Source of the DNA: Candidatus Shapirobacteria bacterium
GTDB lineage: Bacteria > Patescibacteriota > Microgenomatia > UBA12405
Direction: 5' to 3'
Length of the DNA stretch: 64,000 bases
Assembly (NCBI GenBank): GCA_041665485.1
Contig: JBAYIT010000002.1
Coordinates: 197,867-261,866, forward strand
In this document: positions 1-31,571 of the stretch, one piece after another
Numbering within the stretch: the first letter of the stretch is position 1
Layout: each line of letters starts with the position of its first letter
Program-made: the position numbers and the translations under genes
The notes under the pieces: generated by a model
What the model was told of the DNA's origin: nothing
Databases searched by the model: none
Seen by the model: the letters and a program-made list of their open reading frames with translations, nothing else

Positions 1-67
1 TAGTGTTTTTTAGTTTAGGTTCCGGAGTTTTCTTTATTAATACAAAGTAGCCGATTAAAAATAACAA

Positions 68-105
68 CAGGATTAAAGCTACTCCAAGCTGGAGTAGCTT
101 TCGTG
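68..105. terminator. Palindromic hairpin (agctactccaagctggagtagct) followed by a T-run; candidate intrinsic terminator at the window edge
   Basis: Perfect inverted repeat with a 3-nt loop followed by ttcgtgttttt on the + strand. Confidence 0.3.
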
Positions 106-146
106 TTTTTAAATTTAAAGGATTCAATTCAATGTCTGTCATATCA

Positions 147-917
147 TTATTGTATATAACCCAATGGATTAACCGCTCTCCAAGTATTTCCATCTTTAAT
201 ACGTATTTCGTAATGTACATGATCGCCGGTTGAAAAGCCGGTATCCCCCATAATTCCGACTGGTGTTCCTGATCTAACCATATTTCCATTTTCAACCAAA
301 GCCAAGCTGAAATGAATGTACTTTACTCTAAACGTATTATTTGTATTTGTTATTTCTACTGTTTCTCCCCCGTAGGTATCAATATAGTGATTAACACTAC
401 CACTAATCGTAGCAAATATAACGACTTTATGCGTTTCTTTATAAGTCAAGCTATTTTCATAATATGCTGAACTAGGAACAAGATCTATCGCTGGATGTTC
501 TTTCCCGTATTGGAGGTAGTAGCCGGGGTCCAAAAAATACGAGGTAATCGTAGTGTAAGACATACCACTACCACCAAAAGGGTTTTTCCTAGGTACTTGA
601 GTGTCTCCAAAACTAGAATCTGATGGAATGTTTGAGTTGTTTGAACCAAACACCGATGTAATGTTAGTTAAGATACTCGATCCTAAAATTACGGGTGACA
701 TAAAAATAGTGCCGATAACAGTAAGCATAAATAAGAAAAAGATAAGCAAAGTAACCAGTAAGGTAGCGATTGGCTTTTTAAACTGGGCTACCAGATCACC
801 GGCTAAAGGAAGTGGAATCAGTAAATTAACGATAAAAGCAATGATCTTATCTATAAAAAATCCAAAGGGATCATCTTTTATTCTATTTAGTTGCAGTGGG
901 AGTTTGGCAACTTTCAT
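147..917 (-). CDS. Membrane-anchored M23 (LytM-type) peptidase; probable cell-wall hydrolase of the adjacent T4SS-like cluster
   Basis: C-terminal GDTGFSTGDHVHYEI motif typical of peptidase M23; N-terminal hydrophobic helices; co-oriented and overlapping with the VirB4-like gene. Confidence 0.7.
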   Translation of the reverse strand: MKVAKLPLQLNRIKDDPFGFFIDKIIAFIVNLLIPLPLAGDLVAQFKKPIATLLVTLLIFFLFMLTVIGTIFMSPVILGSSILTNITSVFGSNNSNIPSDSSFGDTQVPRKNPFGGSGMSYTTITSYFLDPGYYLQYGKEHPAIDLVPSSAYYENSLTYKETHKVVIFATISGSVNHYIDTYGGETVEITNTNNTFRVKYIHFSLALVENGNMVRSGTPVGIMGDTGFSTGDHVHYEIRIKDGNTWRAVNPLGYIQ

Positions 918-3049
918 AACCCATTGTTTCCGCCATTAAATATTAAGGGTTCTTCAAAAGGCAGGACAACAATATTTAACCGGATATGCTCTTCCTCTCT
1001 GAATAAAACCACCTCGCCAATGTTGAGATACCCTAGTTGCTGTTTTTCATCATCAGTCATTGGATATATAGTTCCAATTTCTGAAAGAGCGGCATATGAT
1101 TGCTTAAGAAGAATTTTGGTTTCCGAGTTAGTAATAATTGCTTTACCGTATTCGTTATGTAAAAAGTCCTCCACATCTTGAGTCACAGAAATGACACCAA
1201 TATTGCGCTTCCTTGCTTGTTTGACTAATTCACGATAAAAGACGGCTACTTCTGGATCAATTAATAACTTATGAGCTTCATCAATAAATAATGCTCGTCT
1301 TCTGCCGTTGTGATTATTTACCAAATTCCAAATAAGAGAAGTTAATAAATACATTGCCGGATCTCGTTTTTCATCTTTTTTCAAATCGTGAAGATCAAGC
1401 ACAATAATGTCATTATCCAGCTCTAATCTTCTGGTTGAATTAAATACACCTCTTAAACTTCCACTGGATAAGACGCTTAAATCTTTTTGCATGGGATGAT
1501 CTCCCAGAAGATCAAGTAAATTTTCGAAGCTTGGGGTTCCGGCATCATATAGTTTAATTAACTTCTCATCAAGCAAAGCACTGTCAAAATGAGCTGGAGG
1601 AATAAAGAACTTGAAGAATGTTTTTAAAGTAGAAATATGATCTAAGATATCGTTTTCTTTTGAGCTATTAATATAAAAAGGATTGATGCCATTTTCTCTT
1701 GAAAACTGAATAACTTCACCGCCTAGAGCTTTAGCCAAATTTACATATTCCCCCTCAGGATCAATAGCTAGAATTTGAACTCCTCGCATATAAAGCCTAT
1801 TCATTAAAATCTTGGCAGTGACGCTTTTACCCGATCCTGAAACACCGAATATATTAACGTTATTATTTCTTGAGGTAAAAGGATCAATAAAAACTAAAGA
1901 GCTATTGTAGGCGTTTACTCCCATAAATATCCCGTTTGGATCTTGAAGTTGTTTGGAAACAAAAGGCATCAAATAAGAAGTCGCGGTTGATTGCAGAATT
2001 CTGTTTTCTTTTAGATGATCAGTGGCAAAGGGTAAAAAGTTTTTGTAGGCGGTTTTTTGACCGAAACTATAGCGGTTAAAAGTTAGATCCATTGATAAGC
2101 TTAAATCTTGGAGTTGTTTGTGAAGGAGGGATAATTCTTTTTCGTCCTTTGCTTCCAGTTGAAGATACAGTGAATAAATAATTCCTTTTTCTGCTTCATG
2201 AATTAATTCATCTACAAAACTGGATACCTCTTCGATATTTTTATCAATCTGTTGGTCACGGATTTTACCTAGCTTAAGTCGTTCGTTTTGTTGCATTTCC
2301 AAAACTGAAAGACGTTGTTTGGCCTTTTTGAGTAGTTCACTTGAAGGAGAGGGCTCAATAAAAATACTTAAAGTAAATGGAAGTGAAGAAGTCAGCAATC
2401 TAAAAAATATATATGGGCTAAGGTACGCCGGAATATCCGCCAGATAATAAAAGCTTTTTATCCTGTCGCCGGTTTGTACATAAGAATTGGTCTCTTTAAT
2501 ATATTCACTTTTATATGATCGGTTCTGTGTCTTTTCAACCATCAAAGTATCGATGTTTTTTTCTAAGGTCAGATGAAACTCTGATTTTCCGCTCTCTGCG
2601 ACAGCTTGTTTATAATTTTTTAACTCTTTTTGGAAATCTAAGTAATTTTTAATCAATTTAACTGGATTCTTATTTGGCCTAAGAGTAGGTCTGCGAATGT
2701 TGGAAATATCACTACTTAAGAAATTATCTTTTTTTATTATTTCCTCTTGACCGGCGACTATCTCCATTAGCCGTTTAACTTCTTCTTTTAAGGCCTCGGC
2801 AGTTGCATTTTTAGGGATATCGGATTGACCATTAAAAAATTCCTTTTCCGCTATTAGTAACCCTTCATTTTTCCTTTTTATTAGATTGTATTCCTGCTTC
2901 AATTTGGCAAGTTCTTCAATCTCGATATTTTTATCGTAGGAAAGATCGGTAATTTGTTCCTTTAATTTTTGGGTTAAACTAAAATTACGAATATATCTAT
3001 ATGTCCTAATAACTCGTTTATGGAATTTTTTTATCAGATTTGTTTTCAT
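914..3049 (-). CDS. VirB4/TrbE/CagE-family type IV secretion ATPase (C-terminal ATPase portion)
   Basis: Walker A GVSGSGKS followed by IDPEGEY; Walker B FIDEAHKLL; VTQDVEDF motif; size and neighbourhood fit. Confidence 0.75.
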   Translation of the reverse strand: MKTNLIKKFHKRVIRTYRYIRNFSLTQKLKEQITDLSYDKNIEIEELAKLKQEYNLIKRKNEGLLIAEKEFFNGQSDIPKNATAEALKEEVKRLMEIVAGQEEIIKKDNFLSSDISNIRRPTLRPNKNPVKLIKNYLDFQKELKNYKQAVAESGKSEFHLTLEKNIDTLMVEKTQNRSYKSEYIKETNSYVQTGDRIKSFYYLADIPAYLSPYIFFRLLTSSLPFTLSIFIEPSPSSELLKKAKQRLSVLEMQQNERLKLGKIRDQQIDKNIEEVSSFVDELIHEAEKGIIYSLYLQLEAKDEKELSLLHKQLQDLSLSMDLTFNRYSFGQKTAYKNFLPFATDHLKENRILQSTATSYLMPFVSKQLQDPNGIFMGVNAYNSSLVFIDPFTSRNNNVNIFGVSGSGKSVTAKILMNRLYMRGVQILAIDPEGEYVNLAKALGGEVIQFSRENGINPFYINSSKENDILDHISTLKTFFKFFIPPAHFDSALLDEKLIKLYDAGTPSFENLLDLLGDHPMQKDLSVLSSGSLRGVFNSTRRLELDNDIIVLDLHDLKKDEKRDPAMYLLTSLIWNLVNNHNGRRRALFIDEAHKLLIDPEVAVFYRELVKQARKRNIGVISVTQDVEDFLHNEYGKAIITNSETKILLKQSYAALSEIGTIYPMTDDEKQQLGYLNIGEVVLFREEEHIRLNIVVLPFEEPLIFNGGNNGL

Positions 3050-3858
3050 GGTCGTAAGGTAGAACTCATAAAGCGTATTAATTCTTGATTGACTAGTGGT
3101 TTGACCGTTATATTGCAGGCTGATAATGCTCCGGCAAAACTAATGCTTAAGTCGTTTAGCTTTTTAATTGCAATAGTAAACTCCGAAGTTTTTCTGGCAT
3201 TACAGCCCATGGATAACACCGCGTAATGGCGGGTAATAAATAAGGTGTCAGTACTTATGAATTTTGACAAATCATTGATATAACGGGTGATAAGGGATTC
3301 GCGGTTAAGTTTCGCCCCACCATAAAGTGAAAAGAAGTGTTTAGAATAATCCTTAATTTCGGCTTTTTCTTTTCGGACAATCAATTGTACCGGTGCAGGT
3401 AGTATATTTATCGCTTGTTTAAGTCTAATAAAGAAGTTTTCGCGATCTTGTTCGTTTAGCAAAGCTACATCAAATGGTTCAATCGCTAGCATTTTGACAA
3501 TACTGCCGTTTCTGACAATCAGATTATCCTGAATGGTAAAGTCAGTAAAATACGGCTCAATATCTTTGAAGCGTTTTTCTTTTCTTCCAGATTTAAAGGT
3601 AAGCAGGCGTGGTACAACTTTATAAATTGGCTGGTTATCAATATTTTGGGTAATAAAAGCGACAAAAAAGATGGTCGTTACAATCACCGATGAAATGTAA
3701 TAGCTCCACTGAAACAAGTGGAGAATATGGTGAAAAACTAAATATAAAGATATGGCTATGATTACAGTCCCAGCAATCACCAGAACAGAGTCTGTAAAAA
3801 ACAGACTTCGCAGTATATGAACCCTAATATCGTCTTTATATATTCTTACGTTTTTCAT
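3046..3858 (-). CDS. Membrane protein; possible VirB3 / VirB4 N-terminal domain-like component (split VirB4)
   Basis: Two N-terminal TM helices then a soluble domain; stop overlaps the start of the VirB4-like ATPase (atga), suggesting translational coupling. Confidence 0.35.
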   Translation of the reverse strand: MKNVRIYKDDIRVHILRSLFFTDSVLVIAGTVIIAISLYLVFHHILHLFQWSYYISSVIVTTIFFVAFITQNIDNQPIYKVVPRLLTFKSGRKEKRFKDIEPYFTDFTIQDNLIVRNGSIVKMLAIEPFDVALLNEQDRENFFIRLKQAINILPAPVQLIVRKEKAEIKDYSKHFFSLYGGAKLNRESLITRYINDLSKFISTDTLFITRHYAVLSMGCNARKTSEFTIAIKKLNDLSISFAGALSACNITVKPLVNQELIRFMSSTLRP

Positions 3859-5599
3859 AGTTTTTATGAGAATAAATCCTAATTATTGGATCAGTCCCTT
3901 TTTTAGCTTGACGCTCAACTATCACACCCGAAATACCATATGCTTGATTTCTGCTCTTTGCTATTTCCAAGAAATTTTTAACTCGGTGGGGTGGGCTAGC
4001 TTGATTGATAAAGGCATAATTAATTTCTTTACCCTGTCGTTTTGATTCTTCCATCGCATTAAAATTATGAGGGTTAGGGTTGTTTTTGCCAAAACTGGAG
4101 AGATCAATAAACTGCTCGTGATCAAAAGTCACTTTTTGCAGTTTATCTTCTGCTACGCCATCCTGTACTGCCTCTAATCTGGATGGATAGTATGAAACTA
4201 AAGCATTTTTCTTGTCTTCATATTTATACGCATCGCCGCTTACCGAAACTACTCCCTGCTTTGGGTTTTCTGTTTCTATCACAAATCCTTTACCTGTTAA
4301 ATTTTGAGAAAAAGGAGGAACGGTAACTTTTTCTTTACCTTGGGGATTTTGATTGTTACCCTTATTAAAGATGTTTGTTTTCTGATTCGAGTTGGTATTA
4401 TCGGAAGTTGCGGTTTGTTTACTATTATAATCACCACCCGAGTCTCTGTTTTGAAATAACGATCTGGTTTTATGTCCCAATTGACTGCTGATATTTCCAC
4501 CGATAAAGCCTCTGGAGAAATTACTAATGGGTGATGTTACCGCTTTAGATAATCCCCGATACGATATTGCTGCATACATGTTTCCAGACATAGCCGTCCA
4601 AACATCTCCAAACATTTTAGCCACCAGCACATTAACACTACCTAAAAAAAATAGGAAGCCGGTGTAAAAGAAAAGCATACCCACACTTGGACCTTTAGAA
4701 TTTAGAATGCTGGTAAAAATATCAGTAGCAATCGCAAACCCCAAAACAAAGGCAGGTTGCTCGATGAGAAAGGTAAACCACGATTTAAAAAAGGTATGCA
4801 CGATCCCTTCTGTTCGTTCTGACAGGGCAAAAGGGAGAATAATCGGATAAAGCACTCCCAAAAATAATAAAGAGGCGAAGCGAATTACAAACTGAAATCC
4901 TATGTAAATAAAGCCACATAGTAAAAAGACAAAGGTTAAAGCAAAAAGAAGAATTTGGACAATAAACTTACCAAGTGAATGGAAGATTCCACCCCGTAGC
5001 GAGATATCAAATGAGGGGATACCAAAAGTCTCTGACGGATTGTTATTTTCACTTATCGCTTCTTGAGATTTATTAAAGTAGTCATCTAAAAACCCGGTAA
5101 ACTTTTGGGTAGTTGAGATTTTATCAACCAAAAGATTGTTAAACTGGATACTGTAAGAAAGTACTGATGGTACGGTGACAAAAAGAACAATAACTATAAG
5201 TAAACGAACAAAAAAAGATTTTAGTTGTTGAGCATTATCAGAGCCGAGCTTTGTCATGGCAATACCGGCGATGATTATGGCAAGTATTGGGATAGCAATT
5301 TGATAGAACATATCTCTATATTTGGTAACTCCCGGAATTTCAGAGTTATCTTTTAGCTTGATGGTGTTAGCCAGCGGATCGGGAGTATAGAAAATAAAAC
5401 CACCTAAAAAGGAATCAAATCCGGCAATAAAGTTTTTTAGCAGTGAGATTATTGAAGACGGTTCGTTTTGAACAGTAAATTCATTTGTATACTGAATGAC
5501 GGGAGCAGGTGTTGGAGTCGGGGTTTCTTGAGCTAATACAATTTGTGAAGTTAAGAGAAAGGCAATTGTTGTAAAAGCGATTATTAATGCTATTTTCAT
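3836..5599 (-). CDS. Polytopic membrane protein with signal peptide; VirB6/TrbL-like candidate
   Basis: Signal peptide MKIALIIAFTTIAFLLTSQIVLA, PT-rich linker, multiple hydrophobic helices, C-terminal N/Q/S-rich tail; sits between pilin-like and VirB4-like genes. Confidence 0.4.
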   Translation of the reverse strand: MKIALIIAFTTIAFLLTSQIVLAQETPTPTPAPVIQYTNEFTVQNEPSSIISLLKNFIAGFDSFLGGFIFYTPDPLANTIKLKDNSEIPGVTKYRDMFYQIAIPILAIIIAGIAMTKLGSDNAQQLKSFFVRLLIVIVLFVTVPSVLSYSIQFNNLLVDKISTTQKFTGFLDDYFNKSQEAISENNNPSETFGIPSFDISLRGGIFHSLGKFIVQILLFALTFVFLLCGFIYIGFQFVIRFASLLFLGVLYPIILPFALSERTEGIVHTFFKSWFTFLIEQPAFVLGFAIATDIFTSILNSKGPSVGMLFFYTGFLFFLGSVNVLVAKMFGDVWTAMSGNMYAAISYRGLSKAVTSPISNFSRGFIGGNISSQLGHKTRSLFQNRDSGGDYNSKQTATSDNTNSNQKTNIFNKGNNQNPQGKEKVTVPPFSQNLTGKGFVIETENPKQGVVSVSGDAYKYEDKKNALVSYYPSRLEAVQDGVAEDKLQKVTFDHEQFIDLSSFGKNNPNPHNFNAMEESKRQGKEINYAFINQASPPHRVKNFLEIAKSRNQAYGISGVIVERQAKKGTDPIIRIYSHKNYEKRKNI

Positions 5600-5628
5600 A
5601 AGGCGGCAGAATGGACTTATGTTGGTCC

Positions 5629-5958
5629 TTAGTTAGTGCCACCGACAAACTGTTTCAAAATACTGGCCAAACTTGCCGCACCAAAGACTAGAAGACCTCC
5701 AATTAAAATATTAAAGATCCATCCTTTAAGTCGTGATTTTCTTTCGGTATCATCGCCACTGGCAATAAGAGCAATACCGAGTGCAGCAATTGAAAGCGCC
5801 ATAACAGGGAGTGAAAAATATTGAAGTGTTTTAACCACGCCCCATAACAACTGATCAAGACTAGTAAATTGGATGGGTTGAGCTGTATTATAAGCTGTAA
5901 TATCGTTTGCCATATTATTTGTGCGAATTATACTAAATAATATGAGGTATGTCAACAA
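5629..5958 (-). CDS. Small two-helix membrane protein; VirB2/TrbC pilin-like candidate
   Basis: 109 aa with two hydrophobic helices separated by a charged loop (SGDDTERKSRLK); first gene of the co-directional cluster. Confidence 0.4.
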   Translation of the reverse strand: MLTYLILFSIIRTNNMANDITAYNTAQPIQFTSLDQLLWGVVKTLQYFSLPVMALSIAALGIALIASGDDTERKSRLKGWIFNILIGGLLVFGAASLASILKQFVGGTN

Positions 5959-6089: not shown

Positions 6090-8117
6090 TTACTCGTATC
6101 TTAAGGCGTTAAGAGCAGAGATTTTGGTGGCCCGTCTGGCCGGATAAATACCGGTAATAATCCCGACCAAAAGTGAGAGAAAGATGATTACAAAAACAAA
6201 CGATAGTGGTAAATATGAGATATCGACAAACCCAATCCCTTTAAAGATCGAAAAAATGGAAATAACGATTCCGGCAAACTTGCCCAAGATAAATCCTAAA
6301 ATAATTCCCAAAATCCCTCCGAAAAATCCCATAATCATGGATTCTGTTAAAAATAATTCCTGTACCTCAGAAGATTTCATTCCCATTGCTTTCATTAACC
6401 CTACTTCTCGAGTTCGCTCCAGAAGCGATACGGTGAGGGTGTTAAACATGCCCAAAGCGGCTACTGACAAAGCTACCATACCCAGAAGCATCAAAAGAGT
6501 TCTGGCTGTCGCAAAAAGCGAGTTAATTTGTTCTACCGTATCGGCAACCGATCTGGTTACGTACCCCATAGCTTCAACTTGTTTTCTGACTTTGGGAAGG
6601 TCTGTCTGGTTATTAACCACTACTTTTACTTGTGAGTAGTTCGTAATTCCCAAAGTGCGAAGGTCAATAAAAGGCACGTAAAAAACCGGTGTTTTTTCCT
6701 CTGGCGTCACTCCAATGATGGTATATTCTGCTGGAGCCGATTCAATTTTTTGGGTGGGATCAGTCAGAAGATCGCCAACAACAACAAACGAAGCCGTAAA
6801 CTTTTTCCCGACTGCTTCACTTTCTTTTATCCCAAGAACCGATAACATGGCACGGTTGACCACCGCTTGCTTTCTTGCTTCAGCAGCTAATTCAATTGTT
6901 TTTGTTTCCGGGGTTGCAATAACGCCGGCTTCAGAGGCAATTTCTACCCAACCAACCATATCGTCAACTTTTTTACCTGAAGCAGTTGAGTTATTAGTCG
7001 TTACACCTAAAACCTGTGGTTCAGTCACATTTACACCAGAGATTTTTATATTTATCTCGGCAAAAAAGCCGGTCTTTTGCACCTGCTTATTATCCTCATC
7101 CCGTAAAACAACATATTTTCCCTCCTCACAATCTCCTTGTGTTTCTGAATCACATTTTTCCTCTTTCCAAAGAAGCACTGGCGCTTTGATCCATTTCCCC
7201 AATGATGATCCTTCTTCTGTATTGCCGAATTCACCTGCGCCGTAGTCTGATAAATAACTGTCACCCCAAACTTCTTCGCCCGCAGACGTTCCTTCAACAC
7301 GCTTGGTATACCCTAAAACCTTAGCGGTAGTTGATGGGTTTTCCCGCACCCTAATCCAGGAAGAAGCATCTACAGCATAGTCTAATTTCTGTATTGACTC
7401 ACCTTGTTTACCAATCCGGTTTTCCGTTGTTGCACCGGCCACCTGCCCGGTCTTTTCCAATAATTCTGCCGTCAGCTCATTGCTGTCAAAGATTTTTCCC
7501 TCAACTGGCTTGATGGCTGATTGTTGGAGGTAGTCGGTCGTCACTCCGTAAACTGCCATATCGGACTGCGAATTTTGATAGTTGACTCGGCCAACAACGG
7601 CAATCAAGGGTAGTGCCATGTTAATCGCCGATATATCTTTAAAGTTGGAAAGAGTTTTGTCGTCAATTTTTATTTTTCCTCCCGATTGAGTGGTTATATC
7701 GGCTTGTCTCATCTCCTCAAGTCGGGCCACCCGGGTAATCACCAGTTGTTGCAAACCATAACCAATGGATACCAAAAACACAATCGCTCCAATGCCAATC
7801 ATCATCCCGCCGATAGTAACTATAGTTCTCGTTTTTTTGGATTTCATATTTCGAACCGAAAGTTCAATCAGGTCAACTCTTGAAATCGTGTTGCTGCGAT
7901 GTTGGTCTAAAAGCTTTGTTGCTTTGACGTAAAATGATAGAAGTGGAGAGGTTAATCGTGCTTTTACGCCTTTGGGAAATAATTTCCAATTAGAAATCGT
8001 AATTATTCCATTTGCGGTCACATAAAGCATGATAAGCAAGGCAAACGTTACCGCATGCCACAAAGCACCGGTAAAGTTTAAAAAACTAAATTTAGATTTT
8101 GATTGGTAATTTTGCAT
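6090..8117 (-). CDS. MacB/FtsX-family ABC transporter permease with large extracytoplasmic domain (SH3b-like insert)
   Basis: N-terminal TM, roughly 400-aa periplasmic domain, C-terminal FtsX-type 3-TM bundle; paralog of 28705..30582. Confidence 0.75.
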   Translation of the reverse strand: MQNYQSKSKFSFLNFTGALWHAVTFALLIMLYVTANGIITISNWKLFPKGVKARLTSPLLSFYVKATKLLDQHRSNTISRVDLIELSVRNMKSKKTRTIVTIGGMMIGIGAIVFLVSIGYGLQQLVITRVARLEEMRQADITTQSGGKIKIDDKTLSNFKDISAINMALPLIAVVGRVNYQNSQSDMAVYGVTTDYLQQSAIKPVEGKIFDSNELTAELLEKTGQVAGATTENRIGKQGESIQKLDYAVDASSWIRVRENPSTTAKVLGYTKRVEGTSAGEEVWGDSYLSDYGAGEFGNTEEGSSLGKWIKAPVLLWKEEKCDSETQGDCEEGKYVVLRDEDNKQVQKTGFFAEINIKISGVNVTEPQVLGVTTNNSTASGKKVDDMVGWVEIASEAGVIATPETKTIELAAEARKQAVVNRAMLSVLGIKESEAVGKKFTASFVVVGDLLTDPTQKIESAPAEYTIIGVTPEEKTPVFYVPFIDLRTLGITNYSQVKVVVNNQTDLPKVRKQVEAMGYVTRSVADTVEQINSLFATARTLLMLLGMVALSVAALGMFNTLTVSLLERTREVGLMKAMGMKSSEVQELFLTESMIMGFFGGILGIILGFILGKFAGIVISIFSIFKGIGFVDISYLPLSFVFVIIFLSLLVGIITGIYPARRATKISALNALRYE

Positions 8118-8125
8118 TGTTATTT

Positions 8126-8884
8126 TTACGCTTGGATTTTTAAATCTTTACCTCGCTTACTTTTAATTTCACTCATTAACTCTTTTTGGTCTTCCTTGTC
8201 ATAGACACCAACAACACTCCCGTTAAACATCTTTACCGCCGTAATGGCATACTTTAAATACTCTAAATCATGGGTGACCATCAAAATGGTTTTTTTGTGT
8301 TCTTTATTTAACTCCGTTAACAGTTTCATTAGTCCTTGTCCTGATTCATAATCCAAGTTTCCGGTTGGTTCATCAGCAATAATTACTTCAGGATTGGTAA
8401 CCAAGGCCCTAGCTAGTGCTACCCGCTGTTGTTGGCCGCTTGATAATTCAGTTGGGATGTACGTTGCCCAATTGATCATTTCCACCGTTTCCAATATAAC
8501 TCGGGCTTTTTCCAAACTATGAAAACGGTCAAGTCCCAAAAGCTGCAGGGGGAAGGCGACGTTTTCGACAACCGTAAGCGACCTAATCCAGTTTGGCTGT
8601 TGATAGACGATGCCGGTATGCTCTTTTCTAAAATCCGACCGGTCATCTTCGGTTAATCCATCGTAGAGATTTTTACCGGAAAAATACACACTTCCCTTAG
8701 TTGGTGCTTCCAGCCCCAGCATGGTATGTAACAGCGTTGACTTACCACAACCGGATGGGCCAAAAATAATGACAAAGTCACCACTTTTAATTTCCAAAGA
8801 AATATCTTTAAGTACCGGTACATCTTGGTCGCCGATATGGAACGACTTGGCCACATTTTGTATTTTAAAAAGATAATCATTCAT
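8126..8884 (-). CDS. ABC transporter ATP-binding protein (MacB/LolD-like)
   Basis: Walker A GPSGCGKST, signature LSGGQQQRVALARAL, Walker B IIADEPTGNLD, H-loop VTHD. Confidence 0.9.
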   Translation of the reverse strand: MNDYLFKIQNVAKSFHIGDQDVPVLKDISLEIKSGDFVIIFGPSGCGKSTLLHTMLGLEAPTKGSVYFSGKNLYDGLTEDDRSDFRKEHTGIVYQQPNWIRSLTVVENVAFPLQLLGLDRFHSLEKARVILETVEMINWATYIPTELSSGQQQRVALARALVTNPEVIIADEPTGNLDYESGQGLMKLLTELNKEHKKTILMVTHDLEYLKYAITAVKMFNGSVVGVYDKEDQKELMSEIKSKRGKDLKIQA

Positions 8885-8886
8885 AG

Positions 8887-11800
8887 TTATTTATTAGTTC
8901 CTCCCATAAATCCAAAGGCTTGCTGCAGGTTAGTAATCACCAGATTTAAAGCGTTATCGGTGGCCTTAGGTGTAATCGTTACCGTGTCAATTGAGTTGCC
9001 GACATTACCCACTTTGTCTTTGGAAGTTGACCGCACATGATAAACTTTTGCTGGCGTTAAGTTTGAAATTATTACCAAGTGGTTTATGGTCAAGTTAGTA
9101 TCTTCTTGCGTTTTTTGTGAGTAGGTTGTGCCGGTACCTTCGCCAAACTCTACTTGAGAAGTTGCCGGTTCATCCGTATTCCAGGATACGATTAGTTGGG
9201 CGGTTGATTCCTGGGCGGTTGAAGCGGTGGGTGGGATAGTTGCACCTTCAACATGAAGCTCTAAAACCTGCGGCGGTCTGGTATCGGTTGCTGTTGTCAG
9301 CCGCTGCGAATCAGAAGCAGCTTCGTTGCCGATTTTATCGCGCCCTCTTACCACCATAATATAATTTGTTTGGGGCAAAAGTCCGCGGATAATCATTCGG
9401 TGGTCACCTTTCGTTAAAGCGACATTAACTTCATCGCGGGCGTCAGCGGAATTACCCTCAGGATAGTAGGTGACAATTGAAGAGACTTCGGTGTTGGTAA
9501 TCCACGTCACTAAAAGAGTTGATTGAGCGGTGTTGGCTACTTGCTGAATCCTGACATTGCTAATTTTTGGCCTTGGTAGGGTAGTAAAGTCCAAGATTGT
9601 GCCTTCGTATTCGCTTGATTCGCTGTCAAAGGTATTGATTTTATAGTAATACTTTGTCCCATCCAAAAGTCCTGTGAGTTCGGCTGTGTAAGTGGTCTCA
9701 GTAGTTGAGGTTGAAATTTCTTTAGCTCCGCCAAAACTGGTGGTGGTGCCATAGTATATTTTGATTTTTGAGGCGTTGTTGGAAGTGAACTGGATAATAG
9801 CGGTAGTTAAACCAATGTTTTTAGCGCTGACGTCTTTAACGGTTGGCGCCGAAGAGGTAGAAAAGCTTTTTTCTTCACTGGCTCCAGTATTACCGTCTTC
9901 ATCTGTCCATTTGGTTTTATAGTAATAGGTTGTTCCCGGATTTAAGCCGGTCAACTGGATTGAATGCGAAGAAACCTGAGAGGAGTTGCTGGGCTCAACC
10001 GTATTATAACTACCGCTGGTTGTGCCGTACTGCACTTTGGAATCCGAGCTTCTGGAAGTTGTCCAGGTAATTGTGGCTTTTTTTGTGGTAATTGATCCGA
10101 CGTCTGGTCCGGTTGAGAGACTAGGGGCTGATGTCCATTTACCTGTAGGAGTGATTGAAACTGCATTAGATCCCGATGATTGGGCGTTAGCGCCGTCTTT
10201 GGCGTAAATCTTGTAGTAGTATTTGGCCGATGTAGGAGTGTTATCTACATAAGAAAGGCCCGAAGTTGTTCCGGTTTGAGCAAAAGTTGTGCCGTCAGTT
10301 GAGCGATAAACAAGATAGGTCAGATTTCCCGCACCTTTATAAGTTGGCGCCGTCCAAGTCAGGGTCACATTCCATTGGGATTGAGATTTAATCGAAGAAT
10401 CGGAAGCCACCAGATTCCCGGGATTGTCAGGATCAGTCGAGTCAAGAGTAAATGACGCCGAAATATAGTTTGAAGGCGAATAATTGGGAGTTGACGCATT
10501 ATCAATTGCCACAACATTGACGGTATTTGTGCCTTTGTTCACACCGGGCAAGGCTGCGGCCGAAACCGTTCGTGATGTTCCGTTGTCAATATAGGTAGTG
10601 GCGTTTCCTTGTAAAGTCGCCAAGGTTGAAGGCGGCGAAGTGTTGATCATATAATAATAATGGGCCACAGTTTTACCATTGGTCGGTGTTGCCTCTGGCC
10701 AGGATAAAGCATATGAATTAGAAGTTGAAGTTGATGGGGTTACGGTTACAGTCGCTAACCCGTCAAACGCCGGAGCTGCCCCGCCGTAATTGAGATTACA
10801 GGTTCGGATTGTCGCATCAGTTGAAATATTACCGGCAATATCGACTGTCCGGAAATAAATGATGTTATTGCCAGAATCAATTCCGTGCGGCAAACTATCA
10901 GACTTACCGTCCTGGGCCTGGGTTAATGTCCGCGAAGTGGCACTTGTGGGAACGTAATTATTGATACCAACCAGTGCTTCCGTGGTTGTCCCCAGCCATG
11001 TACCAGTTGTAGTATTAATCTGGTATTGCCAACCTAATATTCCCGATCCAACCACTTCGGTAACCGTATCAGAGGATGCCACGCTGTCAGTTGTCGGCCA
11101 GGAAAAGTTCATATCAGCAACATTGGAAAAACTACCCGAAGCGCAGGAAATATAGGCAGTATTTAAAGGCCGAGTATCGTCATACCTGAATTTAAAAGTA
11201 GCCGAGTTTCCGGCAAAAATATTACCTGATTTATCCACTACCTTGACAGCAAAAAGATAAGACTTAGGTGAGGTTGACAGAGGCGTTGTAAAATGACTTG
11301 CTAAATCAATACTGGTTCCGGTCACAATAAATTGGCAGGTCGTGCCGTCTGTTGGCACCGGACTGGTACTTAAAAGTCCCTTGGCTGTTGCCGGATCATT
11401 ATCTGGGATATCATCTCCGTTATTATCAAGGCTTAATGACAAACAATAGCCTTTAACTCCACTTTCGTTAGGATTATCGGCTCCGGCTGTCCAGGAAAAG
11501 TAAGGAGATGGGTTATTCGTCCAACCGTTTGAAGCCACCGTCGTTCCGCCGTTTGACCGAGACATTAAAATTGTAGAGGCATTACTTCCCCCGTTTGCAA
11601 CGTTTGGCGGGTTGGTGTCGGTGGTAAAACCAACTGATATATGAGGCAGTTTTGGTACATCAGCGCTTTCCGAGTTAAAAATAGCCTTAACTGAAATTTT
11701 ATGCGAAGTGGCAATAAGTGACGCATGTTGCATAATCGGGTTTTGTGCGTCCATTAGTTGTGCTGCCGTATTACCATCCGTTGCTCCGGCTACCACCCAA

Positions 11801-13767
11801 GAACTGCCGTTCCAATATTTCCAAGTGTTGCCGGACTCACAAGCTGTTCCCTGCCCGACACTTTTATTATCACTTCCAGCCGCGCCCAAATCATCGGTAC
11901 ATAATTGGTATTTGATGGTGGAGTTGCCAGTATGAGTGGCATCAGCCGTACAAACTGAACCAACCAGAGTTCCTTCACACAAATTGTCCCAGGTATTAAC
12001 CAGACCATTAAAATAACCGTCTTTATTGAAAACACTGTAGGTGCCTTGTTTTATCAAAGTCAGCTCATCAACTTTAACGGATTTGCCTCTTTTGACCAAA
12101 ACTCCGGCATCAACTGCGCTGTTAACACCGGTAACCGTGCCGGTTAATTTGTACCAGTTGCCGGTAACCGAAGTGTATGTGGGGCTGGTGATGGTGTTGC
12201 CGCCGTAATAAAGAGTAGCCACGGTGTCATCAACCACTCCACCAACCGGATCGGAACTCAAGTTATAGACATATGCTGAAATGGTGTAAGGAGCAGTATC
12301 GCCAACATTAACTGATTGATAGAGTTTGCCATCGACAATAGAGCCTATAGTAATTGTATTTCCACCGGCGCCGGGAAACCCGGAACTAGATGAGAAAGAT
12401 TGAGAGATTGCTACGGGACCACTGGCGCAGCGGAAACCAAGACTGTAGGCCGTACCCGTGGGCGCATAGATCAGATGCAAGGCGAACACACCCGCGCCCG
12501 TGGTATCGTTCCAAGCGCTGCCGCGTAAGAACGCGAAATTAGTGCCGTTTGTTCGAGCCCCCATATAATATTTACCCATGCCTTGAGCAGAGCCCCATGC
12601 AGTATTAGATGGCCTTAAAAGATCATAAGCTAAAGTACCGTAGTTACCGGCGCTGTTAAAGTACGGCCAATCAACATAAGCAGCAGTCTGAGCACTATCA
12701 GGTTTATTTTGTCCTAAAATTGAATCATTTGTCCACTCCCAGACGTTACCGGCCATATCCCAAATAATTTGTCCATTTGATAGAGTAAAAGTTCTTTTTT
12801 GTTTGCCTGAAGTATTATCGCAAACTGTTGCCCCTGTGGTTGTTTTATAACAGGCATAGGTGTCGTTGGTACTGGCATCAAGCGCCAGCCCCGTATCACC
12901 GTTTATGGCTTCGCTTACATTATCATTGTGGCCAGAGGCTAGCATGCCGGTTCCCGGCGTATTGCCGCATGGATAAACGCCATAACCGCCAACCGCAGTG
13001 CACCAGTTAGCGCTTTGACCTTCCGCATTGCGGGCAACTGTCATCCATTCGTTATTCGTAATCAGATGAGGGGCAGTAACTCCGACTCCCAATGACATAT
13101 TCGAACAGTAGCTTTCCGCATCGTTGGCGGTGCTGTCGTTTTGAGGAATATAGGCGATAGGAAAACCTTGGGCAGTTGAAACAACATGTTTTGCCCCAGT
13201 ACTATTACTACAGCTACATCCAGCTCCATTATTTCGGTACGTTCCGTATTGATCTCCCGTGCCATCTGCACCTGCCGAGCCATTACAGACATTACCTGAA
13301 GCGACCGTATTTCCCACATTGTCGCCGTCAGTGTCGCATTTGGCTTCATATTTCATTGCCAAAAAATTACCAGTAGGAGGATTATAGGTTGCGTTGGCGG
13401 GTACTTCTACCCAGCCGGAAGGGGGAACCGCGGCCACACTCCAAGAATCAGCATTATCTGTAAAGGCCGGATTAGCGAATTTATTAGCGCCAACTGTTCC
13501 GCCCGTTGGCTGTGCACCAGTATCATTAACCGTGGTTAAACTGGTCGTGTAGTCTGAAGCGGTCGCGCTTGAGAATGTCCATTCTTTTTTGCTGTCATTT
13601 AGGGCAAATACATTGGGAAATAGTTCTGATAAAGCCAGATAGGAACCGCCAAAAAGTCCGATTGTAATAAACAATATAGCCAACAGGTTAAACTGAAACC
13701 TGGAAAAATGAAATCGCGGCTCAAAGAAATACTTTTTAATGTTATGAATTAGGTTCATGTTGGTCAA
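8887..13767 (-). CDS. Giant (1626 aa) membrane-anchored surface protein: N-terminal signal-anchor, FGE-sulfatase/C-type-lectin-fold domain carrying the DGR variable region, long FN3/Ig-like repeat stalk; DGR target protein
   Basis: FGE/CLec motifs (NVWEWT, RGSAWN, GFRCAS); VR at codons about 411-450; C-terminal roughly 500 aa highly similar to the 23526..28031 protein. Confidence 0.8.
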   Translation of the reverse strand: MTNMNLIHNIKKYFFEPRFHFSRFQFNLLAILFITIGLFGGSYLALSELFPNVFALNDSKKEWTFSSATASDYTTSLTTVNDTGAQPTGGTVGANKFANPAFTDNADSWSVAAVPPSGWVEVPANATYNPPTGNFLAMKYEAKCDTDGDNVGNTVASGNVCNGSAGADGTGDQYGTYRNNGAGCSCSNSTGAKHVVSTAQGFPIAYIPQNDSTANDAESYCSNMSLGVGVTAPHLITNNEWMTVARNAEGQSANWCTAVGGYGVYPCGNTPGTGMLASGHNDNVSEAINGDTGLALDASTNDTYACYKTTTGATVCDNTSGKQKRTFTLSNGQIIWDMAGNVWEWTNDSILGQNKPDSAQTAAYVDWPYFNSAGNYGTLAYDLLRPSNTAWGSAQGMGKYYMGARTNGTNFAFLRGSAWNDTTGAGVFALHLIYAPTGTAYSLGFRCASGPVAISQSFSSSSGFPGAGGNTITIGSIVDGKLYQSVNVGDTAPYTISAYVYNLSSDPVGGVVDDTVATLYYGGNTITSPTYTSVTGNWYKLTGTVTGVNSAVDAGVLVKRGKSVKVDELTLIKQGTYSVFNKDGYFNGLVNTWDNLCEGTLVGSVCTADATHTGNSTIKYQLCTDDLGAAGSDNKSVGQGTACESGNTWKYWNGSSWVVAGATDGNTAAQLMDAQNPIMQHASLIATSHKISVKAIFNSESADVPKLPHISVGFTTDTNPPNVANGGSNASTILMSRSNGGTTVASNGWTNNPSPYFSWTAGADNPNESGVKGYCLSLSLDNNGDDIPDNDPATAKGLLSTSPVPTDGTTCQFIVTGTSIDLASHFTTPLSTSPKSYLFAVKVVDKSGNIFAGNSATFKFRYDDTRPLNTAYISCASGSFSNVADMNFSWPTTDSVASSDTVTEVVGSGILGWQYQINTTTGTWLGTTTEALVGINNYVPTSATSRTLTQAQDGKSDSLPHGIDSGNNIIYFRTVDIAGNISTDATIRTCNLNYGGAAPAFDGLATVTVTPSTSTSNSYALSWPEATPTNGKTVAHYYYMINTSPPSTLATLQGNATTYIDNGTSRTVSAAALPGVNKGTNTVNVVAIDNASTPNYSPSNYISASFTLDSTDPDNPGNLVASDSSIKSQSQWNVTLTWTAPTYKGAGNLTYLVYRSTDGTTFAQTGTTSGLSYVDNTPTSAKYYYKIYAKDGANAQSSGSNAVSITPTGKWTSAPSLSTGPDVGSITTKKATITWTTSRSSDSKVQYGTTSGSYNTVEPSNSSQVSSHSIQLTGLNPGTTYYYKTKWTDEDGNTGASEEKSFSTSSAPTVKDVSAKNIGLTTAIIQFTSNNASKIKIYYGTTTSFGGAKEISTSTTETTYTAELTGLLDGTKYYYKINTFDSESSEYEGTILDFTTLPRPKISNVRIQQVANTAQSTLLVTWITNTEVSSIVTYYPEGNSADARDEVNVALTKGDHRMIIRGLLPQTNYIMVVRGRDKIGNEAASDSQRLTTATDTRPPQVLELHVEGATIPPTASTAQESTAQLIVSWNTDEPATSQVEFGEGTGTTYSQKTQEDTNLTINHLVIISNLTPAKVYHVRSTSKDKVGNVGNSIDTVTITPKATDNALNLVITNLQQAFGFMGGTNK
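12364..12385 (-). promoter_or_regulatory. GC-rich hairpin (ggcgccgggaaacccgg) about 35 nt 3' of VR on the coding strand; candidate DGR target-recognition hairpin
   Basis: Stem ccggg/cccgg with aaa loop in otherwise AT-rich DNA; absent next to TR. Confidence 0.4.
12420..12535 (-). repeat. DGR variable repeat (VR), 116 bp, inside the giant surface protein gene
   Basis: 99 of 116 identity to TR at 15381..15496; all 17 mismatches are where TR has A on the coding (minus) strand; encodes ...APTGTAYSLGFRCAS. Confidence 0.85.
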
Positions 13768-14009: not shown

Positions 14010-15167
14010 TTAAGAAATAAATAAAAACCAGAGTATTATTGAGAACAACTTAAGTTGTTCATTAATTTTGGTTTTAATTTTCTCTTTTGATTTAATAATA
14101 GTTTTTTCAGTAGTGATATTTCTTTCAAATAGGTTTTTTTCTAACCCATAAGCATTGGCACGTTTTAGGTGCCCCCGAATCGAGCTGTAAGTTGCCTCAA
14201 GTTTATGCTCCTCGCCGTTCTTTAAGTTTTCATTTCTTCTCAACTTCAGCTTTTGTCTCATTCTTAAAAGTGTCTTCCCTCTAACAAGGACATGATCATA
14301 GAAAATAAGGTAGCCGACAAACGGTATCCCGCTTTTGACATTTTGGATTATGACTTTTTTAGGATGAAGACTAAGATGTAAATGACATTCCAAGAATGAT
14401 TTAAAATCCTCTTTAGTCTGTTTCAAATATTCTTTGTCAGAGTCAATAACCAAAAAGTCATCCATGTAGCGGGCATACCATCTGATATGTAAGGTTTCTT
14501 TGGCAAAATGATCAAGCTCGTTAAGATAAATATTGGCAAACAGTTGACTGGTTAAATTACCAATCGGTACACCCCGGCGCAGATCCGGATTAACCACATC
14601 TTCCGGTGCTTCAATCGGGCGGCCCTTGATATTAAAACATTTATGTTTAGTGATAATTTTTTCAATGAGCCTCTTTGTCTTATCACAAGGCACGGTTTTA
14701 TTGACAAGTGTCAGTAAGACATCCCAGGAAATGCTGGCAAAATATTTTTGAATATCCATCCTCAAACAATAAATTTGCGCGTCCTTTCCGTAAATTGACC
14801 TGGCCGCCTGTAAAAACTTTTTAATTCTGGATAAGCCGAAATGGGTGCCTTTATTCTTTCGGCAAGCGAAAGAATCGTAAATAAATTTTGATTCAAAAAG
14901 GGGCTCGATCCGAGAAACTAAAGAATGTTGGAGCACTCGGTCGCGAAATGCCGGTGCCGCCACCTTTCTTAGTTTAGGATCAGATACGGTAAAACAAACA
15001 TAGGATGAAGGTAAATAAGTCTCCAGTATTAATTCCCGTTGTAATTTAAACAAGTTGCTTTCCAGAAAAAAGCCATAATTGACGATATTACTTTTATACC
15101 GTTTGCATTTTCTGGCTGCCTGGTAGGCTGATAGCAGGTTGTTAAAATCATAGATTTCTTCATACAT
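14010..15167 (-). CDS. DGR reverse transcriptase
   Basis: RT motifs including PIGNLTSQLFANIYLNELD and YARYMDDFLV (YxDD); 385 aa with no maturase/endonuclease domain; TR and Avd-like gene immediately upstream. Confidence 0.85.
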   Translation of the reverse strand: MYEEIYDFNNLLSAYQAARKCKRYKSNIVNYGFFLESNLFKLQRELILETYLPSSYVCFTVSDPKLRKVAAPAFRDRVLQHSLVSRIEPLFESKFIYDSFACRKNKGTHFGLSRIKKFLQAARSIYGKDAQIYCLRMDIQKYFASISWDVLLTLVNKTVPCDKTKRLIEKIITKHKCFNIKGRPIEAPEDVVNPDLRRGVPIGNLTSQLFANIYLNELDHFAKETLHIRWYARYMDDFLVIDSDKEYLKQTKEDFKSFLECHLHLSLHPKKVIIQNVKSGIPFVGYLIFYDHVLVRGKTLLRMRQKLKLRRNENLKNGEEHKLEATYSSIRGHLKRANAYGLEKNLFERNITTEKTIIKSKEKIKTKINEQLKLFSIILWFLFIS

Positions 15168-15380: not shown

Positions 15381-15496
15381 CACTGGCGCAGCGGAAACCA
15401 ATATTGTTGTTCGTATTCGTGGGCGCATTGTTCAGATTCAAGGCGAACACACCCGCGTCTGTGGTATTGTTCCAATTGCTGCCGCGTTAGAACGCG
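15381..15496 (-). repeat. DGR template repeat (TR), 116 bp
   Basis: Homologous to VR at 12420..12535; Asn (AAY)-rich when read in the VR frame (NAPTNTNNNIGFRCAS); lies between the Avd-like gene and the RT. Confidence 0.85.
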
Positions 15497-15561: not shown

Positions 15562-15903
15562 TTAGTTTAGGTTTGTCCAACCGTAGAGGATTTTTCCTAT
15601 CTCATTTATTTTTTCAGCAGCATGTTTGTATTGGATAATACTCATGAAGTGAAGATCTTTTGTTAAACGGATAAGAATTCTTAGTTCATCCAGTTGATCG
15701 GACATTTGAAGTTGAATAACCTTTCTGGTGTTGTCCCTAATTTTATTAGCTTGAACCGAAGAAAGTAAAATCTTTAATCCCAACTCTTCCAAATGTTTCC
15801 CCAAAACCAGCCGATGACTTTTAGGAATCCTATTTATCAATGGATACAGCCAAAGGAGAAAGTCGTAAATTTTCTGGAAAATGATAAGTTTTTCGGCACC
15901 CAT
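15562..15903 (-). CDS. avd: Avd-like DGR accessory protein (four-helix-bundle family)
   Basis: 113 aa; KIYDFLLWLYPLINRIPKSHRLVLGKHLEE pattern resembles Avd/PF05635-type proteins; position immediately 5' of TR-RT. Confidence 0.5.
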   Translation of the reverse strand: MGAEKLIIFQKIYDFLLWLYPLINRIPKSHRLVLGKHLEELGLKILLSSVQANKIRDNTRKVIQLQMSDQLDELRILIRLTKDLHFMSIIQYKHAAEKINEIGKILYGWTNLN

Positions 15904-21695: not shown

Positions 21696-21697
21696 AT

Positions 21698-23230: not shown

Positions 23231-23293
23231 ACCTCCATGGATTGCTCCACACGCACCTCAAGCGTGCTTGTCTACCAATTTCAACATCCCGGC
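23209..23293 (-). tRNA. tRNA-Leu (anticodon GAG), long variable arm, CCA encoded
   Basis: Acceptor gccggga/tcccggc, anticodon stem cacgc/gcgtg with loop ttGAGgt, T-arm ggttcaagtcc. Confidence 0.75.
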
Positions 23294-28031: not shown

Positions 28032-28034
28032 TTT

Positions 28035-31557: not shown

Positions 31558-31571
31558 ATGCAAAAAACTAA

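Follow-up and report, generated by a model that had tools for sequence, protein, structure and literature searches.

The type IV secretion systems (T4SSs) of the Patescibacteria, or Candidate Phyla Radiation (CPR), have been examined by genetics in one species and by genome survey across the group. In the saccharibacterium Southlakia epibionticum, transposon sequencing (Tn-seq) showed the T4SS cluster and its pilins to be essential for epibiotic growth, and recognisable coupling and relaxase proteins are lacking (Wang et al., 2023; PMC10633639). Among 3,035 Patescibacteria assemblies, VirB4 homologues were found in 2,417 (~80%), the majority forming one monophyletic clade inside MPF_FATA, with TrsD and VirB2-like pilins adjoining virB4, and only 109 relaxases were detected (58 MOBC, 39 near a t4cp) (Quinonero-Coronel et al., 2025; PMC12102498). 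For the class Microgenomatia, that survey found VirB6 to be scarce and VirB1 and VirB3 to be mostly unlinked, and its Table S3 lists, for two Shapirobacteria genomes, only TrsD and VirB4 as linked, with no VirB6 and no MOB. The missing relaxases and linked coupling proteins are the main argument against DNA transfer by these systems (PMC10633639, PMC12102498). Their substrate is unknown (PMC11665869), though the T4SS is essential in the one species tested; reviews regard the role of the Patescibacteria T4SS as wholly unknown and propose that it delivers effectors or takes up nucleic acids (PMC11665869, PMC12857230), and putative T4SS pili have been connected with feeding on host RNA in a 2026 preprint (bioRxiv 10.64898/2026.06.21.733656). 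Here we describe a T4SS operon and its surroundings in a 64,000-nt stretch (the window) of a Candidatus Shapirobacteria contig (JBAYIT010000002.1, positions 197,867-261,866; GCA_041665485.1), from a CPR genome of the class Microgenomatia. The operon is the distal module of a ~28-kb block that runs from a tRNA-Leu(GAG) gene to a phospholipase D (PLD)-family gene and holds the full set of modules that makes up an integrative conjugative element (ICE), and our literature search found no description of an ICE-like organisation around a Patescibacteria T4SS. The rest of the window carries 14 tRNA genes and the housekeeping genes for TGT, ThrRS, PheRS-beta, PBP1, RecG and trigger factor, so the locus is chromosomal. 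Coordinates are those of the window; L001 is the same contig extended beyond the window start, and the other L numbers and P0284 are loci in other genomes, among them a complete Roizmanbacteria genome (CP065004.1, L018 and L004), a metagenome-assembled WWE3 genome (L021 and L009) and a close relative of the present genome (L023 and L024).

The operon (Table 1) is certainly a T4SS of the published Patescibacteria type and represents its Microgenomatia version, marked by six conserved genes, a single conserved pilin and a promoter of consensus sequence; systems of this kind are already known from publications of 2023-2025. An initial annotation, made from the sequence alone, had described five co-directional minus-strand genes, tightly packed or overlapping, that together form a minimal monoderm-type T4SS. 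The open reading frames (ORFs) and overlaps are as described, with 4-nt ATGA overlaps between the VirB4 and M23 genes (914-917) and the TrsD and VirB4 genes (3046-3049), a 23-nt overlap between the VirB6-like and TrsD genes (3836-3858) and a spacer of 29 nt from the pilin gene to the VirB6-like gene, and hidden Markov model (HMM) searches supported the assignment of the parts. The annotated extent of 147-5958 holds for four of the genes and fails for the pilin. Its ORF (5629-5958) can be read from a TTG at 5958, but we place the start at the ATG at 5913, because the promoter occupies 5955-5927 and both gene callers and orthologues agree on the shorter protein: gene callers give 94 aa, the orthologues have 92-94 aa in most other genomes, and the 109 aa read from the TTG are too long. 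Nor does the operon end after five genes, as a sixth gene, g6, begins just after the M23 gene and runs off the window start; in L001 it is complete (12908-13699) and encodes 263 aa.

The order and overlaps of the six genes are identical in 11 further genomes, and the operon is intact in every genome examined. The CPR-placed genomes among the 11 carry the labels Roizmanbacteria, Levyibacteriota, Daviesbacteria, WWE3, Candidatus Parcubacteria and Patescibacteria group bacterium. With family-level HMM support for each protein and an order conserved at 44-89% amino-acid identity across these genomes, the gene set is far beyond chance. Hexamers near consensus, read by eye, are also found 5´ of the pilin gene in L004, L006, L008, L009, L015 and L016. 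In the window only 13 nt separate the end of the -10 hexamer from the pilin ATG, with no visible Shine-Dalgarno sequence, so that the pilin mRNA would be nearly leaderless; the spacing from promoter to ATG is similar in L006 and longer (~60 nt) in L004, L008, L009 and L016.

The features shared with the Patescibacteria T4SSs surveyed previously, Microgenomatia among them, are an MPF_FATA-affine VirB4, a TrsD gene immediately upstream, a VirB2-like pilin nearby, a chromosomal location and the lack of outer-membrane components (PMC12102498). Beyond these, the present locus has an extended but divergent VirB6-like protein, a hydrolase of the M23 type, a protein with a predicted beta-propeller, a linked pair of VirD4 and PF13814 proteins and a serine recombinase that abuts a tRNA gene, and its single, highly conserved pilin gene stands in place of a variable array of pilins. 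It thereby adds parts that profile searches missed in Microgenomatia, namely a VirB6-like protein, the wall hydrolase and the propeller accessory. The T4SS of the CPR epibiont Southlakia epibionticum ML1 (SEML1_0006-0019) is likewise of monoderm type, with VirB2-like pilins and, downstream of virB4, a peptidase/lysozyme that serves as cell-wall hydrolase. The six pilin genes of that cluster are divergent, neither a coupling protein nor a relaxase is recognisable in it, and it is essential by Tn-seq. The Microgenomatia version has one pilin gene and a linked type IV coupling protein (T4CP) and MOBC-like protein.

The assignment is anchored by the ATPase. The initial annotation had placed it in the VirB4 family rather than with FtsK/HerA, and the comparison proposed there for telling the two apart came out clearly for VirB4: the protein scored 228.8 bits with NCBIfam conju_CD1110 (E=1e-67), 222.5 with the Mycoplasma-ICE VirB4 model, 143.6 with TraC and 102.6 with VirB4_CagE, as against 12.6 with FtsK_SpoIIIE, 17 with HerA_C and 14.5 with TrwB. 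The annotated motifs IDPEGEY and FIDEAHKLL are present (in AIDPEGEY and ALFIDEAHKLL), together with the Walker A sequence GVSGSGKS. In the PDB, the sequence matches a single entry, 4ag5 (E=2e-33), which is a VirB4 from the monoderm Thermoanaerobacter pseudethanolicus. A search of plasmids returned 1,896 matches, all below 60% identity and at ~24-28% among the matches listed; the commonest genera were Bacillus, Enterococcus, Staphylococcus, Clostridium and Spiroplasma, which is the MPF_FATA host range, and the top matches listed also included actinomycetes (Embleya, Streptomyces) and the archaeal Sulfolobus. Together, the model scores, 4ag5 and the plasmid VirB4 matches effectively rule out an FtsK/HerA identity for the ATPase. 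A DNA pump of that type, or a phage or plasmid packaging module flanked by unrelated membrane proteins, might be read from the match of the ATPase to the generic DUF87/HerA central domain (44.9 bits), but this is far exceeded by the 100-229 bits of the VirB4-specific models; moreover, the pilin lies above the TrbC gathering score, the TrsD, VirB6-like and VirD4 proteins match T4SS families, and phage genes are not present, leaving such a pump with next to no probability.

Within the VirB4 family, the best-scoring models come from MPF_FATA systems (pGO1 TrsD/TrsE, Clostridioides difficile CTn2 CD1110 and the Mycoplasma ICE Mbov_0397), which share with the present operon the separate, TrsD-type VirB4 N-domain and the lack of VirB7, VirB9 and VirB10. 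The scores nevertheless fall under the curated equivalog cut-offs (228.8 against 325 bits for CD1110, 222.5 against 590 bits for Mbov_0397), so the ATPase belongs to a distinct VirB4 subfamily that is neither the named Firmicute nor the named Mycoplasma one. A further difference is that FATA systems are without VirB2 pilins and use surface adhesins, whereas the present operon has a pilin. A Candidatus Shapirobacteria protein matches the VirB4 at 100% identity; the VirB4 proteins of the other clusters listed (the named ones being Roizmanbacteria) reach 69-82%, and those of genomes labelled Levyibacteriota, Daviesbacteria, WWE3 and Roizmanbacteria 70-76%.

The remaining operon proteins fit the same family with different degrees of divergence. 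The two-helix protein described as pilin-like in the initial annotation exceeds the gathering score of Pfam TrbC (PF04956; 33.5 against 27.9 bits), with helices at residues 33-51 and 62-80; a hydrophobic leader cannot be made out in its 94 aa, and a search with the family HMM found no second pilin copy in the window. For the 587-aa polytopic membrane protein, a VirB6-like profile match was obtained with eight of ten orthologues (TrbL/VirB6, PF04610; best E=6e-7), while the window protein itself stays below the gathering score (19.7 against 25.9 bits). It has a signal peptide, at least five transmembrane (TM) helices (six or seven hydrophobic segments), a variable low-complexity linker (~375-430) and then a conserved C-terminal domain of ~160 aa, and is by these features predicted to be an 'extended VirB6' in the sense of PMC12857230; sequence and profile searches against the PDB gave chance matches only. 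The TM protein said to be coupled to VirB4 was supported both by the ATGA overlap and by matches of all 12 orthologues to VirB4_plasma, a Mycoplasma VirB3/VirB4-type ICE ATPase model (N-terminal model positions 12-258, best E=7e-14), and of 8 of the 12 to the TrsD model (best E=1.4e-5, far under its 200-bit cut-off). With TM helices at 24-42 and 52-70, this protein is a membrane-anchored VirB4 N-domain encoded as a separate gene and translationally coupled to virB4. An hhalign comparison of the TrsD alignment with one Bacilli VirB4 (L017) was not significant, though the aligned stretch lay at the VirB4 N-terminus.

The membrane-anchored M23 peptidase of the initial annotation was likewise borne out, with TM segments within residues 18-71 and the motifs HxxxD (HPAID) and HxH (HVH) conserved in 11/11 orthologues. 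As Peptidase_M23 is its only domain, with neither an SLT nor a CHAP domain found, the protein would be a functional analogue of VirB1 and not a homologue. The product of g6 has no Pfam match. An AlphaFold2 (AF2) model of a 91%-identical orthologue, built from a 53-sequence alignment (pLDDT 89.3), has a TM helix at 11-35 and ~24 strands arranged in a 6-bladed beta-propeller, for which Foldseek returned generic propellers only. We considered g6 as a VirB8, given that it is bitopic and of ~260 aa, but rejected this since the modelled fold is a beta-propeller and not NTF2-like; g6 is the only bitopic candidate in the operon, and no VirB8-like gene was identified.

The initial annotation had also suggested a connection between the operon and the VirD4-like gene at 18579-21248, and this is supported by synteny. 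The same-strand order VirD4, Replic_Relax (PF13814), 5-15 kb of variable genes and pilin operon is found in six genomes (the window, L008, CP065004.1 with L018 and L004, L019, the WWE3 genome with L021 and L009, and L023 with L024), and VirD4 is among the four genes upstream of Replic_Relax in 7/8 genomes examined. In the window, the integrase, the relaxase-family protein, the T4CP and the VirB4 module are contiguous within ~23 kb (147-23230). The VirD4 protein carries N-terminal TM segments, a Walker A sequence (GATGTGKTT) and a Walker B sequence (LYVDEF). The neighbouring DUF2958 gene has an identical position and strand in L019, L021, L022 and L023. A relaxase and an oriT, which the initial annotation had proposed to look for beyond the window start, had different fates: a relaxase candidate was found, inside the window, in the Replic_Relax protein, and no oriT was found around virD4, Replic_Relax and the recombinase.

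PF13814 belongs to the MobC/MOBC relaxase superfamily (PMC5357655), and the Pfam match of the window protein spans the N-terminal 111 of 191 profile positions only. The AF2 model (47-sequence alignment, pLDDT 88.8, pTM 0.88) consists of a winged helix-turn-helix and an alpha/beta restriction-endonuclease-like domain, with FokI as the top PDB fold match (E=8e-5). MOBC relaxases such as TraX of pAD1 combine an N-terminal winged helix with a restriction-endonuclease-like catalytic domain, and the predicted structure of the window protein has exactly this layout. A profile search gathered a large family, with 1,169 clusters at 50% identity (E<=1e-3), 367 of them with E<=1e-30 and nearly all full-length at ~250 aa; 85 of 91 sampled members match PF13814 (best E=1.5e-18). 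Among the putative catalytic residues, compared with the conserved acidic, metal-binding 'DEE' motif of MOBC relaxases, E/D97 is kept in 47/47 close and 84/91 distant homologues and E/D166 in 42/47 and 73/91, and the window copy carries all putative catalytic acidic residues.

Divergent from virD4 are a small conserved ORF and a large serine recombinase, a pair found in this orientation in the window, L018, L019, L022, L023 and the P0284 locus, with recombinase orthologues of 510-541 aa that are 60-75% identical. The 3´ 22 nt of the tRNA-Leu gene overlap the last recombinase codons in antisense, such that the TGA stop of the recombinase is the antisense of the T-loop TCA. The same antisense overlap of the recombinase 3´ end with a tRNA 3´ end was seen in 5/5 checkable loci, involving three tRNA species (Table 1). 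Targeting of tRNA genes is unusual for serine integrases. The combination of VirD4, MobC and a serine integrase is known as a compact mobilisation module of streptococcal integrative and mobilizable elements (IMEs; PMC5357655), and the present module shares it with IME_Class_8. With MOBC relaxases (pAD1 TraX, CloDF13 MobC) it shares the TraX layout of winged helix and restriction-endonuclease-like domain. The MOBC-like protein here is, in comparison, very divergent, and the module is linked to its own T4SS operon.

This resemblance raises the alternative that the recombinase, small ORF, VirD4, Replic_Relax and DUF2958 genes (17.1-23.3 kb) are a ~6-kb IME at tRNA-Leu that hijacks the mating pore of a resident chromosomal T4SS. 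Besides the similarity to IME_Class_8 (PMC5357655), the compactness of the module and its contact with the tRNA gene fit such an element, as does L020, where Replic_Relax lies within ~3 kb of a tRNA-overlapping recombinase and the 16.8 kb shown hold no VirD4 or T4SS operon. Yet the operon follows 5-15 kb downstream on the same strand whether the tRNA is Leu (window, L023) or Glu (L018, L019), and the close relative is collinear over the whole block to the PLD gene and not only over the 6-kb module; we therefore regard a separate IME as improbable.

The limits of the block emerge from that relative, whose VirB4 and Replic_Relax proteins are 81% and 85% identical to the window copies. Collinearity of L023 and L024 with the window begins at the 5´ end of tRNA-Leu and ends ~170 nt after the PLD gene, which forms the right end of the block beyond the window start; the block measures ~28.1 kb in the present genome and ~24.9 kb in the relative. 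Both flanks of the block differ between the two: neither the 64-kb window nor the 8.4 kb beyond its start holds a counterpart of the genes that lie to the left (UvrA, UvrC, SecG and a substrate-binding protein) and right (RuvB, FG-GAP and RuvA) of the block in the relative. A tRNA-associated integrase, a T4CP, a relaxase-family protein, a mating-pore operon, cargo and discrete ends together make up the anatomy of an ICE. Tyrosine integrases, F-type diderm T4SSs and multiple copies characterise the Rickettsiales elements known as RAGE, whereas the present block is single, of monoderm type and equipped with a serine recombinase. What the two have in common is a tRNA-adjacent integrase with T4SS genes in a reduced-genome, host-dependent bacterium (PMC10732058).

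By homology with the systems named above, the parts might work together as follows. Transcription would start from the consensus promoter; the M23 peptidase would open the peptidoglycan locally, the VirB6-like protein and the TrsD/VirB4 pair would form and power the membrane translocon, and the 94-aa VirB2-type pilin would polymerise into a pilus, with the membrane-anchored beta-propeller as a likely extracytoplasmic accessory part. In the most likely working model, which resembles conjugation, the MOBC-type protein would bind and nick DNA, VirD4 would pass the substrate to the VirB4/VirB6 channel, and the recombinase would integrate or excise the block at the tRNA gene. Gene identities, operon structure, synteny, the boundaries of the block and the geometry of tRNA and recombinase are observed here; the assembly of a pilus, DNA as the substrate and mobility today are inferred. 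For the whole locus we favour, at about even odds, an ICE-like system of conjugation type in which DNA is handled by VirD4 and the MOBC-like protein. A wider proposal, which we offer tentatively and with somewhat more doubt than belief, is that in Microgenomatia (and WWE3) the T4SS, instead of being a co-opted secretion machine devoid of relaxases, is the mating-pore module of widespread, tRNA-inserting serine-recombinase ICEs that have their own VirD4 and a very divergent MOBC-type relaxase and shuttle adhesins diversified by retroelements along with defence systems from one ultrasmall bacterium to another, such that conjugation would be active in the CPR; as part of this proposal, standard MOB profiles would have missed the MOBC-type protein at least in the two Shapirobacteria genomes checked. 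The present locus, with its operon in synteny with VirD4, a PF13814 protein and a recombinase at a tRNA gene, in a block that behaves like a discrete island, shows that the argument from missing relaxases may not hold in at least one large class.

Several observations weigh against DNA transfer by the block, many of which would fit a T4SS that is domesticated and vertically inherited for host interaction, by effector delivery or by uptake of DNA or RNA for nucleotides, with the recombinase, T4CP and MOBC-like protein as relics or re-used parts. The published VirB4 clade is near-universal (~80% of assemblies), essentially single-copy and congruent with class taxonomy, rarely crossing classes (PMC12102498), and in Southlakia the T4SS and pilins are essential for epibiotic growth and the T4CP is not; a selfish element would account for these two facts less well than a domesticated machine for host interaction. 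Pilin and VirB4 are very strongly conserved (71-89% and 70-76% identity), and the promoter is kept across candidate phyla labels. The HKD-intact PLD nuclease found in 11/11 genomes fits nucleic-acid scavenging (PMC11665869; bioRxiv 10.64898/2026.06.21.733656). In two genomes the DNA-processing genes are broken beside intact T4SS genes, with virD4 split over three frames in L019 (7179-9845) and Replic_Relax frameshifted in L008 (1187-1832), which suggests weaker constraint on this module, although the frame breaks could be assembly errors. No att repeat was found either. Set against this, most genomes keep the recombinase, VirD4 and Replic_Relax unbroken and in synteny, unlike relics, the recombinase abuts three tRNA species, both flanks of the block differ between relatives, and the experiments all come from Saccharimonadia, with a cluster that lacks a T4CP and relaxase. 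Domestication is thus a serious competitor that we hold to be possible, if on balance doubtful; were the block immobile, it would be an ordinary, well-annotated member of the published family.

Also to be counted against the ICE-like reading are features of the relaxase candidate and of the DNA around it. The putative catalytic D149 is present in only 23/47 close and 61/91 distant Replic_Relax homologues (E/D169-170 is better kept), the protein had no tblastn match in any of the 72,556 plasmids of PLSDB, and the intergenic regions around virD4, Replic_Relax and the recombinase hold no oriT-like iterons or convincing inverted repeats. A direct repeat of the tRNA 3´ end (at least 10-11 nt) was not found at the far end, in the window and 9 kb beyond it. 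More generally, repeats of at least 22 nt are absent from window positions 1-24000 except for the template and variable repeats of a diversity-generating retroelement (DGR); a comparison of 13.7-24 kb with the 8.4 kb beyond the window start gave only 12-14-nt matches at chance level (best E=0.27), the 3´ 25-mer of tRNA-Leu has no second copy with up to three mismatches in the window or L001, and L019, L023 and the merged 38-kb Roizmanbacteria region hold no partial tRNA copy of at least 10-11 nt. The absence of an att repeat is weak negative evidence, since a very short common core is all that serine integrases require. A metagenome scan for an empty site, made with the GIY-YIG protein of the right flank, gave only distant relatives (<=59% identity), whose context was uninformative. 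Finally, GC content at third codon positions (GC3) in the window is lower in the backbone genes (0.28-0.35) than in housekeeping genes (0.41-0.49), but operon GC equals flank GC in 10 other genomes, and we dropped compositional anomaly as a sign of recent foreign origin.

Table 1. Features of the T4SS block and of recombinase-tRNA pairs. Positions are in the window unless another locus is named; identity is amino-acid identity to the window copy across the 11 further genomes.
Feature	Position	Strand	Size, support and remarks	Identity
T4SS operon	1-5955	-	Pilin, VirB6-like, TrsD, VirB4, M23, g6 (cut by window edge)	
g6, sixth gene (beta-propeller)	1-139	-	5´ 46 codons in window; ATG 139, 7 nt after M23 stop	45-55%
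Membrane-anchored M23 (LytM-type) peptidoglycan endopeptidase	147-917	-	256 aa; Pfam Peptidase_M23 53.2 bits	44-56%
VirB4-family ATPase, Patescibacteria / MPF_FATA-like	914-3049	-	711 aa; HMM, PDB and plasmid searches	70-76%
TrsD-type protein, two TM helices and VirB4 N-terminal-like domain	3046-3858	-	270 aa; NCBIfam VirB4_plasma 12-258, E=8e-11	51-61%
Extended VirB6/TrbL-like polytopic membrane protein	3836-5599	-	587 aa; Pfam TrbL 19.7 bits, below gathering score 25.9	59-66%
VirB2/TrbC-type pilin, two-helix hairpin	5629-5913	-	94 aa; Pfam TrbC 33.5 bits, T4SS_pilin 18.5 bits	71-89%
Operon promoter, sigma-70	5927-5955	-	TTGACA-17 nt-TATAAT, 12/12 consensus positions, 13 nt 5´ of pilin ATG	
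MacB/FtsX-type permease	6090-8117	-	HMM	
ABC ATPase of permease	8126-8884	-	HMM; pair collinear in L023/L024	
DGR target, surface protein	8887-13767	-	1,626 aa; variable repeat 12420-12535	
DGR reverse transcriptase	14010-15167	-	RVT_1 62.5 bits	
DGR template repeat	15381-15496	-	Alignment of template and variable repeats	
DGR avd	15562-15903	-	ORF; orthologues annotated bAvd in L022, L023	
TM protein	16023-16853	-		
DUF2958 protein	17107-17616	+	Pfam 49 bits; conserved neighbour of Replic_Relax gene	
Replic_Relax (PF13814) protein, relaxase candidate	17665-18426	-	253 aa; Pfam 33.4 bits, gathering score 25.3	
VirD4-type coupling protein	18579-21248	-	889 aa; TrwB_AAD_bind 38.5 bits (gathering 20.5), TraG-D_C 24.4 (gathering 22)	
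Small conserved ORF	21397-21696	+	99 aa; precedes recombinase	
Large serine recombinase	21698-23230	+	510 aa; Resolvase 116 bits, Recombinase, Zn_ribbon_recom	
tRNA-Leu(GAG)	23209-23293	-	Left boundary of conserved block	
Recombinase and overlapping tRNA	21698-23293		tRNA Leu-GAG	
Recombinase and overlapping tRNA	L023 5143-6738		tRNA Leu-GAG	
Recombinase and overlapping tRNA	L018 2154-3779		tRNA Glu-CTC	
Recombinase and overlapping tRNA	L019 5149-6735		tRNA Glu-CTC	
Recombinase and overlapping tRNA	L020 3116-4882		tRNA Gln-CTG	

The PLD-family gene lies at L001 17201-17653, ~4.2-4.6 kb beyond the window start, with orthologues in L004-L015. It is convergent with the T4SS operon, 0.3-3.9 kb downstream of it in 11/11 genomes, usually paired with a helix-turn-helix (HTH) gene (60-70-aa protein), and encodes a 150-aa, Nuc-like protein with a single HKD and no signal peptide, in which the nuclease motif HxK(x)4D(x)6GSxN is intact. 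Processing of nucleic acids linked to the T4SS is one possible role. Between the operon and the HTH/PLD pair (L001 13773-16763) we noted a defence cassette of ABC-three-component (ABC-3C) type, with a DUF2326 ATPase, MC6 and an effector; the same cassette adjoins virD4 in L022 (935-3817) and is absent from the position between operon and PLD gene in L024.

The segment between the Replic_Relax gene and the operon is occupied in the window by a DGR with its surface-protein target and by an ABC transporter pair. All 17 mismatches between template repeat and variable repeat are at template A positions. The variable repeat is in a CLec/FGE-like 'GFRCA' region in the N-terminal third of the target protein rather than at its C-terminus. 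Similar pairs of a DGR and a giant protein recur in L022 and L023, again in the stretch from Replic_Relax to the T4SS operon, and in L020 close to Replic_Relax. In the related loci, the variable segment holds restriction-modification (RM) systems, ABC-3C, AbiE, insertion sequence elements and, more than once, a DGR paired with a giant surface protein; mobile elements typically carry cargo of this kind (RM systems, ABC-3C, AbiE, DGR).

Just outside the block, beyond a tRNA-Val gene, a plus-strand module of a giant surface protein, an ABC ATPase and a MacB/FtsX permease (23526-30582) is an inverted paralogue of the in-block genes at 6090-13767 (-), its three proteins being 52%, 60% and 62% identical to their in-block counterparts; the segment between the two modules could be inverted by way of such paralogues. 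Next to it, a segment of low GC3 (30826-34862; 0.26-0.32) encodes a 243-aa protein, a 748-aa subtilase (S8) and an AAA ATPase, and in GC3 it resembles the T4SS backbone genes and not the housekeeping genes. Farther along the window, the genes for tRNA Lys-CTT, Arg-TCG and Arg-TCT (42057-42278, minus strand) are packed head to tail, with zero spacer nucleotides between the ARAGORN calls.

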